From Scenedesmus sp. PABB004 (Eukaryota), in the NCBI GenBank assembly GCA_014905635.1, contig JABVCE010000004.1:124001-188000 (forward strand): 64,000 bases of DNA. The letters are read 5' to 3'. Below, one piece after another: positions 47,648 to 53,825 of the stretch (the first letter of the stretch is position 1; the number at the start of each line of letters is the position of its first letter). The position numbers and the translations under genes are program-made. Below the pieces are notes generated by a model. That model searched no databases. It worked only from the letters and a program-made list of their open reading frames with translations, and had not been told where the DNA came from.

Positions 47648-50600
47648 TCAGCTCGCCCACACGTCCTCGACGTAGCGCCCCGCCTCGCGCAGCCCCGCGA
47701 GCCACGCCGCCGCGGCCGCCGCGTCGAGCCCGCCCGCGGCCGTCGCGACGCCCTCGAACGCGTCCCGCACCTCGGGCGCCATGCGCCGCGCGTCGCCGCA
47801 CACGTACACGCGCCCGCCGGCCTGCAGCAGCGCCCACAGGCGCGCCGCGTCGCGCGAGATGAGGCCCTGCACGTACGTCTTGGGCGACCCCGCCGCGCGG
47901 CTGAACGCGACGTGCAGCCCGCTCAGCACGCCCGCGTCGCGCCACGCGGCGAGGCGGGACTCGTACAGGTAGTCGGCGTCGGGCGCGCGGCAGCCAAAGT
48001 AGAGCTCAGCAGGGCCCAGCTGCCCGCCGGCCGCCGCGGCCGCCTCGCGGGCCTCCAGGAAGCCAATGAAGGGCGCGACGCCGGTGCCCGGGCCGACCAT
48101 GATCACCGGCGTGCGCGGGTCGGGCGGCAGCCGGAACGCGGCGCTCAGCGCGCGTACCGTGCCCGCGACAAACTGGCCGGGCGACAGGCCGTGCAGGGCG
48201 CCGCTCGCGGCGCCGACGTGGCGCCGCCCCGTGGGCGTGTCAAACTCGACCAGGCCGACCGTGACCGTGACCCTGTGACGTGACGCGCGGCCGGGGGCCG
48301 CCGTGAGCGCGGCGCGGCCGGCGCGCGGGGCGCGGCCGGCGCGCGGGGCGCGGCGGGGCCGGCGGGGCGCGGCGGGGCCGGCGGGGCGCGGCGGGGCCGG
48401 CGGGGTGCAGCGGGGCGGGCGCGGCGGGCGGGGCGCGGCTGGCGGCGCGCGTGCCGCGTCGCGCGGTCGGGCGGTCGCGCGCCGCGCACCTGCGCGGCCC
48501 GCCGGGCGCGTCCGGGGCGCTCGAAATGGAGTAGTAGCGGGGCCCCAACCGTGGCAGCAGGCCGCCCAGGGCGGCGAGGTCAAGGCCCGGCAGCAGCGAG
48601 CGGTTGGCGTCCAGCACCTCGAGCAGGCTGAGCTGGCGGGCGAGCACCTGGTCGGCGTACCCCGCCTCGCTCGCGAGGCCGCGCAGGCGCGCCGCCTCGG
48701 GCGGGCAGGGGCAGGACTCGGCGAGCGACTCGAGCGCGCGGCGCGTGGGCGTCCAGGAGAGGTCGACGAGCCACGCGAGCACGTCGGCCGCCCGCATCGG
48801 CAGCGCCAGCGGCGCCGCGGCGCCGCCGGCGCTGCCGCCGCTGAAGCCGCGCGCGGGGCCCTGCGCGCTTGGGGACCACAGCACCACCTCCTCGCCGCCC
48901 AGGCCGAGCAGGCGCAGCGCTGACTCGACGAGCGCGGGCGAGTTGCGGGGCAGCACCTCCAGGTGGTCACCTGGTGGCAGGGCAGGGGCGGGACCTGTGT
49001 GAGGCGCGCGGCGGCGCGGCGGCGCGTGTGGGCCGGCGCGTGGCGCGCGTCGCTGACCTGGCGCGTAGGTGAGGCCCGGCGGCAGCTCCAGCTCCACGTG
49101 CCGCGTGAAGCGCCCGCTGCCGGGCGCCTGCAGCTGCTCCGCCGCCGTCACGCGCAGCAGGTCGTAGCCGAAGCGCGACGGCCCGCCCTCGGCGCCGGCC
49201 GCCGCCGCGGCGGCCGCGCGGAGGCGCAGCAGCACGTCGCGCAGCGGCAGCGCGCCCGTGCCCGCCGGCGCCGGCTCGACCAGCAGCGCGGGCGCCTGGC
49301 TGCGCGGCGCGCGCGCCGCGCCCTCGGCCGGCGCGACGCCAAAGTGGGCGAGCAGCGTCGGGGCGAGCCCGGCCCACCAGTCATCCGCCGCGTCCATGAA
49401 CCCCGGGGCCTCGGTGTCGGTCGCGGTCAGCGGCGACAGCCGCGCGCACCCCGCCGCCGCGAGCGACTCGTCCACCAGCCTGCGGCGCGAGCGAGTAGCG
49501 CGAGGGGAGTGGTGGTCAGACGGGCAAGCGAGCGCGGCGTGCGCCGCAGGGGGGCAGACGCCCGCTGCGCCGGGCGCCGCACGCGCAGCGCTGCCGCCGT
49601 GCTCACGTGGGGAAGGCCTGGTACGAGACCCACTGCGAGTTGCCGACGCCGAGCACCGCGTACGTCAGCCCCGCGCCGCCGCCGGCGCCGCCGTCGCCGC
49701 CGCGCGCGGCCGCGAGGGCCTTGGCGAAGCGGGCAGCGTTGTCGGGCGGCAGGCCGTTGTAGGTGGAGGTGACCACCAGCAGCGCGCCGCCGGGGGGCAG
49801 GTCTAGCGCGCCGTCGCGGGCGAGGCTGTCGAGGGGCGCCGCGCGCGCGGCAAAGCCGTCCGCCGCCGCGGCCGCGGCGAGCTGCGTCGCAAAGGTCTCG
49901 CACGTCCCCGAGTTGGACCCAAACGCGACGACCAGCGGCGTGCCGTGCCCCGGCTCGCCGCCGGGCGCGCGGCCGCCGGCGACGGGCGTGCCCGGCGCGG
50001 CGGTGCCGTCGGCGGGCGCCGGCGCCGGCGCGGCCGCCGCCGCCGCCGGCGCCGGCGCCGCCTTGGCGGCCGCGACGCCGCGCGGCACGCCCGGCGCACC
50101 GTCGGCGCGCGGCGGCGGCGGCGCGCCGGGCGCGGGCGCAATGTGGAAGGCCAGCCCCTGCGCGCTGGGCGAGGGGAAGCTCTCGCGCCGGCTCGGGCGC
50201 AGCGTGAAGTTGTCGACCAGCCGGAAGGTGAAATAGTTGTAGAGGCAGGCGATGAAGGTCTTGGCCTCCCACAGCGCAAAGTTCATGCCCGCGCACGCGC
50301 GCACGCCAAAGCCAAACGGCTTGAACGCGTGCGGGTGCCGCCCCGCGCCCTCGGCCGCGCCTGCGCGGGGCGGGAAGAGGGTGCAGGGTGAGCACGTGCG
50401 CGGCAGGGATTGGGGCGGGGCGGGGATGCACACGCGTCGCGGCGCGCACCCGGCATGAATCGCTCGGGGTTGAAGCCGTTGGGGTCGCCCCAGGCGCCGC
50501 CCCAGTGCTTGGGGTTGCGGTGCAGAGCCACCAGGTTGACCTGCACGCGCTGCCCCCGCCGCACGAGCAGGCCGCCCGGCAGCAGCGTGTCGTGCGCAGC

Positions 50601-53600: not shown

Positions 53601-53825
53601 CACCGCGCCGCTCGCAGCGGCGAGGCTCGCGCCGGCGGGCACGCGCACGAGCCGGCCGTTGCGGTCGAGGCCGGTGGGGCTGTCGACGAAGACGATGAGG
53701 CCGTGGCCAGCGGGCGCCTTGGGCGGCTTGGCGCGCGACGCCGCGGCGACCGCCGCTGCCGCCGCGACCGCTGCCGCGGCGCCCAGCGCCACCGCCGGGG
53801 CGCTGCTGTCGGAGCCACGCGCCAT
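47648..53825 (-). CDS. Self-sufficient cytochrome P450/NADPH-P450 reductase fusion (CYP102/CYP505-type), roughly 14-15 exons
   Basis: PHGPRPLPVVGN, GDGGIFTS, VAGHETTA, EALRLHPPA, FNPERF, HAFKPFGFGVRACAG (heme Cys). FMN domain FGSNSGTCE..TSTYNGLPPDNA..GVGNSQW. FAD/NADPH domain GDHLEVLPRN, PRYYSISS, MVGPGTGVAPF, YFGCR, YVCGD, RYVEDVWAS*. Confidence 0.93.
51101..51160. repeat. 7-bp tandem repeat (CCCTGAG)n, telomere-like variant, intronic
   Basis: ccctgagccctgggccctgagccctgaaccctgagccctgag... directly visible. Confidence 0.85.

Follow-up and report, generated by a model that had tools for sequence, protein, structure and literature searches.

A predicted membrane-anchored fusion of cytochrome P450 and diflavin reductase in Scenedesmus sp. 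PABB004, and its place in an apparently uncharacterised algal family

Self-sufficient cytochrome P450 enzymes (P450s) are prized as biocatalysts, and those characterised to date are bacterial or fungal; the bacterial P450 BM3 (CYP102A1) works as a dimer, and membership of a P450 family requires heme-domain identity of about 40% or more. In those parts of the literature covered, class VIII has been defined and its members described as sub-terminal fatty-acid hydroxylases (PMC4950769), mucoromycete CYP5205A proteins have been reported as self-sufficient fusions of 1200–1217 amino acids (aa) (PMC9088945), and the natural fusion mentioned in connection with microalgae is bacterial BM3 only (PMC11197475). 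The present analysis concerns a gene on the minus strand at positions 47648–53825 of a 64,000-nucleotide (nt) stretch of Scenedesmus sp. PABB004 DNA (contig JABVCE010000004.1, positions 124,001 to 188,000; hereafter the window), which, judged by sequence comparison, very probably encodes an intact class VIII (BM3-type) self-sufficient P450 belonging to an unnamed algal family.

Selection of exon limits from GT and AG sites yielded a spliced frame extending from an ATG at 53825 to a TGA at 47648 (3990 nt, 1329 aa), in which the only stop is the terminal one and the C-terminus reads YVEDVWAS; all 14 introns are of the GT..AG type and measure 87–234 nt each. Four of the eight raw frames tested returned Pfam matches, in the order p450, Flavodoxin_1, FAD_binding_1 and NAD_binding_1, and the four N-terminal frames gave no match. 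The 15-exon model and this domain order confirmed the original prediction of heme, FMN and FAD/NADPH domains in one spliced frame ending DVWAS. The C-terminus of the p450 match (E 8e-10) and Flavodoxin_1 (E 1e-14) share one open frame, and the heme-to-FMN junction therefore lies inside a single exon (50360–49607), again as predicted, although the upper limit then proposed (50433) falls in intron 11 (50361–50449). Residues at all 14 exon junctions align to the closest database orthologue, P0002, with no local gaps, and P0001 is a co-linear orthologue (59% identity across 1176 columns). The coding sequence has a GC content of 0.77, rising to 0.96 at third codon positions (GC3), within surroundings of 72–84% GC, so that the description of the gene as intronised and GC-adapted also holds. 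On these grounds the gene is judged to be real and intact, with all heme, flavin and NADPH motifs in one frame. Its features, with the basis for each in brackets, are as follows.

47648–53825, minus strand: whole gene, an anchor–ubiquitin-like–P450–FMN–FAD/NADPH fusion of 1329 aa in 15 coding exons (splice model, Pfam, junctions against orthologues)
53269–53825, minus strand: exon 1, aa 1–185, with start codon, hydrophobic segment, ubiquitin-like domain and proline-rich P450 start (gene model, hydropathy)
52913–53103, minus strand: exon 2, aa 186–249, heme domain, including the long insertion that the family has at the mouth of the substrate channel (gene model, alignment)
52704–52776, minus strand: exon 3, aa 250–273, holding F255, equivalent to BM3 F87 (gene model, alignment)
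52503–52583, minus strand: exon 4, heme domain, the next intron being common to the C31 paralogue (gene model, intron comparison)
52217–52335, minus strand: exon 5, heme domain (gene model, intron comparison)
51963–52039, minus strand: exon 6, heme domain (gene model, alignment)
51697–51821, minus strand: exon 7, heme domain (gene model, intron comparison)
51436–51551, minus strand: exon 8, N-terminal half of the I helix, the intron within AGHETT being common to all three paralogues (gene model, intron comparison)
51185–51221, minus strand: exon 9, 37 nt, with the E449/T450 acid–alcohol pair (gene model, alignment)
50896–50950, minus strand: exon 10, heme domain (gene model, intron comparison)
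50450–50726, minus strand: exon 11, PERF and ExxR (E505–R508) motifs (Pfam, gene model)
49607–50360, minus strand: exon 12, aa 570–820, loop with the heme ligand, linker rich in Ala and Pro, and the greater part of the FMN domain (Pfam, gene model)
50293–50295, minus strand: codon of C592, the heme-ligating cysteine, in FGFGVRAC (alignment)
49058–49479, minus strand: exon 13, end of the FMN domain, hinge and start of the FAD domain (Pfam, gene model)
48490–48970, minus strand: exon 14, FAD-binding plus connecting domain, containing RYYSISS (Pfam, gene model)
47648–48272, minus strand: exon 15, NADPH-binding domain (GPGTG, S1246/R1247/K1253/Y1255, C1280, D1325, W1327) and stop (Pfam, gene model, alignment)
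53739–53795, minus strand: putative signal-anchor helix, hydrophobic aa 11–29 followed by basic residues (mean hydropathy 2.17)
53442–53708, minus strand: ubiquitin-like (beta-grasp) domain, aa about 40–128 (predicted fold, structure searches, profile searches)

Alignment confirmed as intact the catalytic residues of the gene, whose roles we assume to be those assigned in BM3: C592, E449/T450, E505–R508, F255, the S718–T722 FMN loop with its short YNG, Y770, W813, RYYS, S1109, S1246/R1247/K1253/Y1255, C1280, D1325 and W1327, the Ser-Cys-Asp triad of the reductase being complete. Among 34 members of the algal clade described below, the columns for the F87-equivalent, A264, E267/T268, ExxR, the short YNG FMN loop, W813, RYYS, S1246/R1247 and Y1255 are conserved throughout, the heme cysteine is present in 33 (the exception being a gap in one database model), K1253, C1280 and D1325 are each found in 33, and W1327 in 30. 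The substrate channel is altered. The whole family carries an insertion of about 19 residues at the channel mouth, in the segment matching R47/Y51 of BM3 (the carboxylate-binding residues), and the counterpart of Y51 is Ala. At the A328-equivalent, 31 of the 34 members have V and this paralogue has A, and the loop of substrate recognition site 6 (SRS6) reads ESFPSP in this gene and in P0001 and is GGAAP-like in most other members. Because of the remodelled channel mouth, the rebuilt SRS6 and the paralogue-specific A328-equivalent, substrate selectivity should differ both from BM3 and among paralogues.

With an N-terminal heme domain and a C-terminal diflavin reductase in one polypeptide, the predicted enzyme falls into class VIII, and its likeness to BM3 and other CYP102 enzymes extends to the heme–FMN–FAD/NADPH order, F87, AGHETT, ExxR, the heme loop, the short YNG FMN loop and the C-terminal DVW. 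It differs from them, however, in an N-terminal extension of about 140 aa, the channel-mouth insertion and remodelled SRS6, a longer Ala/Pro linker, its 14 introns, and its position in a separate clade. Heme-domain identity was 38–69% against the 34 clade members and 24–30% against 15 bacterial and fungal fusions, the corresponding reductase values being 38–61% and 28–42%. Since heme identity to the bacterial and fungal fusions is under 40%, the gene lies outside both CYP102 (24–30% to 12 bacterial-type fusions, with no nesting in bacterial CYP102) and CYP505 (25.5 and 26.2% to the ascomycete fusions P0185 and P0186, across a branch supported at 100/100, in a comparison limited to families other than CYP541). 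Like the fungal CYP505 enzymes of the P450foxy type it is a eukaryotic class VIII fusion, but P0185 and P0186 are of ~1060 aa, have no such N-terminal module as the algal proteins and cluster with actinobacterial sequences rather than with the algae. The likeness to CYP5205A is one of length and description, no sequence named CYP5205 having been compared. Blastocladian P0172 has 27% heme identity, an N-terminal extension that is weakly alike, no hydrophobic anchor (0.68) and an unstable tree position. By these sequence measures the algal proteins form a third, distant branch of self-sufficient P450s, with less than 30% heme identity to the bacterial and fungal ones. The original label of a BM3/CYP505-like fusion is accordingly retained for the architecture and for the reductase, which is of BM3 type rather than plant cytochrome P450 reductase (CPR) type, and is discarded as a family assignment.

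The distribution of the family was drawn from database queries using the last exon of the gene and, separately, an alignment of the family, with only 8000 candidates scored in each. Full fusions among the matches listed came from the green algae Scenedesmus, Tetradesmus, Monoraphidium, Raphidocelis and Chromochloris, and from Thalassiosira exigua, a Bacillariaceae diatom, Cladocopium, Symbiodinium, Effrenium and Alexandrium; looking up clusters extended the list to Hariotina, Enallax, Tetraselmis astigmatica, Pycnococcus provasolii, Pelagodinium and Yihiella, several of these as complete transcriptome open reading frames (ORFs). Homologues thus span three chlorophyte lineages (Sphaeropleales, Tetraselmis and Pycnococcus), diatoms and dinoflagellates. 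Among solved proteins, the relatives that score best are bifunctional P450/reductases of full length (E 1e-134 for P0001; 4e-263 for the family profile). P0001–P0004, P0008 and P0012 belong to the same family, relatives being labelled cypD or cytochrome P450 by NCBI on the basis of similarity. The family is therefore unnamed, widespread in algae and apparently uncharacterised. The view that such a fusion was unusual or new for a green alga is not supported, given these homologues and the relatives already annotated (NCBI, PMC13315243); the original prediction had itself allowed that widespread, already described chlorophyte orthologues would remove its novelty, and this is partly so, in that they are widespread and annotated by similarity label.

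In a reductase tree of 77 rows, the algal reductases clustered with the BM3-type reductases of CYP102 and CYP505 (Shimodaira–Hasegawa-like approximate likelihood ratio test (SH-aLRT) 99), apart from plant/algal CPR, NOS, MSR and sulfite reductase, and the 34 algal-type rows formed one group within the BM3 type (SH-aLRT 99). Heme trees recovered the same algal group at 81 rows and at 50 rows (mixture model, 100/100), the smaller set being the larger minus 31 rows and rebuilt since no single branch of the first tree set its outgroup apart. With both domains, the algal clade stood outside the sampled bacterial CYP102 and the two ascomycete fusions, and the root of the fusion tree is placed with uncertainty. 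The phylogeny that the original prediction had proposed against CYP102, CYP505 and CYP541 was thereby realised for the first two families, no named CYP541 being included. A 27-row concatenated tree, limited to rows whose organism is named, supported the algal clade (100/100), and within it joined dinoflagellates to Pycnococcus (100/100) and diatoms to Tetraselmis (100/99). Approximately unbiased (AU) tests, both chosen after the tree had been seen, rejected chlorophyte monophyly (p 1e-8) and a clade of diatoms plus dinoflagellates (p 2e-60). A divergent fusion, P0066 (1098 aa), has a reductase sister to the algal clade (SH-aLRT 93), a heme domain on a long separate branch and no N-terminal module, and may represent a second lineage of fusions among eukaryotes.

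The N-terminal anchor and ubiquitin-like domain were overlooked in the original prediction. The first 140 or so residues recur throughout the algal clade and are absent in bacterial CYP102 and ascomycete fusions. Residues 11–29 have a mean hydropathy of 2.17 and are followed by basic residues, a segment likely to be a membrane anchor of the signal-anchor type; N-terminal hydropathy of at least 1.5 was recorded in 27 of 39 clade rows and in none of nine bacterial/fungal controls. The domain that follows, of about 90 aa, was predicted from a 21-row alignment to be a beta-grasp (predicted local distance difference test (pLDDT) 90.3; predicted template modelling score (pTM) 0.82) with the topology strand-strand-helix-strand-(helix)-strand, the second helix preceding the last strand, and superposes on ubiquitin-like domains. 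Structure searches were led by a CIDE domain (Z 9.6, root mean square deviation (rmsd) 2.2, 75 residues aligned) and by PB1 domains (Z 9.4, rmsd 2.5, 79 aligned; another at Z 9.0), with 51 chains at Z 8 or more and RA, FERM-F0 and ubiquitin-like domains nearly tied with them. The likeness to PB1 and CIDE-N domains consists in these top scores (Z 9.0–9.6) and the placement of the second helix, but identity is just 9–18%, the scores are tied with those of other beta-grasp families, and the alignment shows no conserved acidic motif of the OPCA type. No NCBIfam model scored above its cut-off. A profile search of the Protein Data Bank (PDB) gave 18 matches, all sub-threshold (E 0.33–1.9), 17 of which we take to be proteins with ubiquitin-like domains, and ESM Atlas matches (best 0.81; SUMO/ubiquitin clusters 0.79) served as leads only. 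The modelled fold identifies the domain as a ubiquitin-like superfold. Searching 1.84 billion representatives with the domain profile retrieved 37 proteins, four known members and 33 new; of 21 new ones examined, 19 had family-like N-termini by eye, the other two being a USP7-like protease and a multi-ubiquitin-domain protein, and at this search sensitivity the domain appears nearly confined to the algal fusion family. A full-text literature search, subscription journals lying outside it, found no P450 with a ubiquitin-like domain, whose presence here suggests regulation or assembly of a kind absent from BM3. Six proteins of about 680–700 aa (P0161, P0163, P0165, P0166, P0175 and P0178), of dinoflagellate and diatom-group origin, retain the anchor, ubiquitin-like and heme portions, but Pfam finds none of the reductase domains in them; the 81-row heme tree places P0163 and P0166 within groups of full fusions, which suggests secondary fission, and some may be truncated models.

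If BM3 chemistry applies, NADPH would reduce FAD, electrons would pass via FMN to the cysteine-ligated heme, and O2 activated via E449/T450 would deliver one oxygen atom into a lipophilic substrate without a separate reductase. The N-terminal helix may hold the enzyme on an organelle membrane, on the side facing the cytosol, this being a weaker suggestion, and the ubiquitin-like domain could act as a docking or self-association module; the remodelled channel mouth and SRS6 loop would cause the substrate to be bound differently from BM3. By analogy the substrate is, by a slight preference, a fatty acid or membrane lipid. Several points weigh against parts of this account. The same literature search found no algal self-sufficient P450 family described or assayed, and the single-transcript gene model is predicted from genomic DNA alone. 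The anchor segment is Ala/Gly-rich, is judged from hydropathy alone and falls below 1.5 in 12 of the 39 clade rows; for the domain beside it, Foldseek returned nothing at E 0.001 or better (best 2e-3, PB1 and ubiquitin-like chains) and Pfam nothing below E 0.09 with 21 N-terminal domains. With the families of fatty-acid hydroxylases the heme domain shares just 24–30% identity, ibuprofen is turned over by a related family of fungal fusions (PMC9088945, in the part covered), and the deepest branches within the algal clade lack resolution in the 27-row concatenated tree.

Could the locus be a pseudogene, or two neighbouring genes wrongly joined by the model? Its own protein is absent among the database matches listed, but the lack of internal stops, the canonical splice sites, the GC3 of 0.96, the heme–FMN junction within one exon and the co-linear P0001 make this highly improbable. 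Four relatives (Tetraselmis astigmatica, Pelagodinium beii, Yihiella yeosuensis and Enallax costatus) have complete fused ORFs in their transcriptome assemblies. A more serious alternative, still rated below an even chance, retains the same chemistry and supposes a sterol, terpenoid, aromatic or xenobiotic substrate, this paralogue having specialised away from the family. Its A328-equivalent (A rather than the V of 31 of 34 members), its ESFPSP loop, the insertion in the R47/Y51 segment with Ala at the Y51-equivalent, and the conversion of ibuprofen at 95% by mucoromycete CYP5205A10/A11 (PMC9088945, in the same part) are all in keeping with such a role. F87 and the I helix nevertheless remain BM3-like, and loss of R47/Y51 does not exclude fatty acids because at least one bacterial CYP102A relative (P0073) lacks them too.

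The grouping of dinoflagellates with Pycnococcus, and of diatoms with Tetraselmis, most simply suggests two separate transfers out of green algae, but a contaminated Tetraselmis transcriptome or hidden paralogy may account for these pairings instead. How the gene entered green algae is a separate matter. One old transfer from a bacterium or fungus, the origin originally proposed, is plausible without being probable: the distribution is patchy, with no Volvocales or land-plant fusion among the matches listed, the reductase is BM3-type, unlike the alga's own CPR type, and one Coelastrella P450/reductase gene stands among the horizontal gene transfer (HGT) candidates of PMC13315243 in the supplements covered. 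Against this, the sampled bacteria and fungi do not enclose the algal clade, which lies outside CYP102 and the ascomycete CYP505 group in heme and reductase trees alike, and the anchor and ubiquitin-like domain are eukaryote-style additions. Nor was a donor found in a scan of GTDB, in which the best 80 of 291 confirmed loci were only 24–37% identical on their best segment, none of these 80 had the N-terminal domain, and none of the 24 GTDB rows added to the heme tree (27 translated, three short ones dropped) joined the algal clade. Descent from an ancient eukaryotic gene with many losses, the odd diatom and dinoflagellate pairings then reflecting hidden paralogy, seems unlikely. It draws on the several paralogues within one genome and on the N-terminal extension of P0172 (1214 aa), which scored weakly against the domain profile, at 10.6 bits (E 0.008 in a set of 226 proteins), level with the true member P0122, with an hhalign probability of 5.9%; the AU rejections, made with the tree already seen, and the many parallel losses demanded by cross-pairings at 100/100 and 100/99 count against it. 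The account preferred here is of a family old in chlorophytes, duplicated in this lineage after intron gain and probably passed separately to dinoflagellates and diatoms. Taken to its full extent, and only tentatively, this would make it an undescribed pan-algal family of membrane-anchored P450s, present in or before early chlorophytes, docking or oligomerising on an organelle surface through the ubiquitin-like domain, performing reductase-independent lipid oxygenation, and moved at least twice, to dinoflagellates (coral symbionts included) and to diatoms.

Residues about 40–120 of P0172, the fusion of an early-diverging fungus (Sorochytrium), weakly resemble the algal ubiquitin-like domain, and its nearest atlas cluster comprises 1184-aa fusions, one record being labelled Myxococcota; the extension may bear on the origin of the algal family. 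An Acetobacteraceae fusion of 1378 aa (L021:2077-6210), with about 320 N-terminal residues lacking a Pfam match, is basal to the sampled CYP102 group. A viral vector was also considered and rejected, as none of 44 pattern matches in viral contigs was confirmed (exact patterns in intron-free DNA only).

Two further fusion paralogues are present in the same genome (G000; 40 Mb, 80 contigs), on contigs C31 and C14, and are matched exon by exon by the database proteins P0004 and P0012, respectively, both named cypD. The C31 copy has eight of the 14 intron positions in common with this gene (15 of its 17 junctions resolved) and the C14 copy three (28 of 30 resolved); nine of the 14 recur exactly, phase included, in at least one paralogue, and two in all three copies. 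These recurring positions independently support the gene model and indicate that duplication came after intron gain. No additional fusion copy was found, reductase matches on C67, C77 and C35 (at 563 kb) being without a heme-domain match in the 10-kb stretches around them; that on C67 (L009:2201-8845) is a diflavin reductase gene with few introns and with an RNA recognition motif (RRM) domain frame just before it. P0012 (1978 aa) runs the C14 paralogue into a downstream gene containing leucine-rich repeats (LRR), while the genomic frame reaches a normal DVW-type end (L013, about 9300–9350), and the database model is probably mis-joined. The P0001 and P0002 models are without the N-terminal module, matching first exons existing as P0197, P0198 and P0200; that of P0001 is also without the heme cysteine segment, and that of P0004 omits about 80 residues of the early heme domain.

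BM3-like fusions in Scenedesmaceae are already known from NCBI annotations and from the supplements of PMC13315243 (2026). In the parts of that paper covered, a gene abbreviation list defines 'CYP102A', the main text is without 'CYP', and supplements label three Scenedesmaceae genes CYP102A2/A3-like, with expression calls that place one up under low nitrogen. These genes were matched to the present family by annotation, sequences not being compared, and the same parts contain no family definition, N-terminal domain or assay. A 'P450-704B1' HGT gene was rejected as the present gene, since the tables covered give CYP704B1 and CYP102A separately. What is apparently new is the domain arrangement of a separate algal family: anchor, ubiquitin-like domain, P450 and reductase. 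Given its remodelled channel and its adaptation to algal cells, the family may bring novel selectivity and serve as a native tool for lipid or pollutant chemistry in algae, and the tree adds an instance of green-algal genes in diatoms and dinoflagellates that can be tested.

Nothing in the neighbourhood of the fusion gene suggests an island. The upstream neighbour (54209–55600, minus strand), on the same strand and ending about 400 nt before the P450 start, encodes a DDRGK domain (Pfam E 3e-27), presumably that of a UFM1-pathway adaptor. Introns 6, 8 and 9 of the fusion gene (51890–51915, 51380–51430 and 51000–51160) contain short GGGCTCA/GGGTTTA-like repeats, some resembling plant-type telomere units. 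The downstream neighbour (about 44000–46904, minus strand) resembles a cationic amino-acid permease by eye, two frames tested having no Pfam match, and one of its introns carries a (CA)n microsatellite of about 300 nt near 45600–45950.

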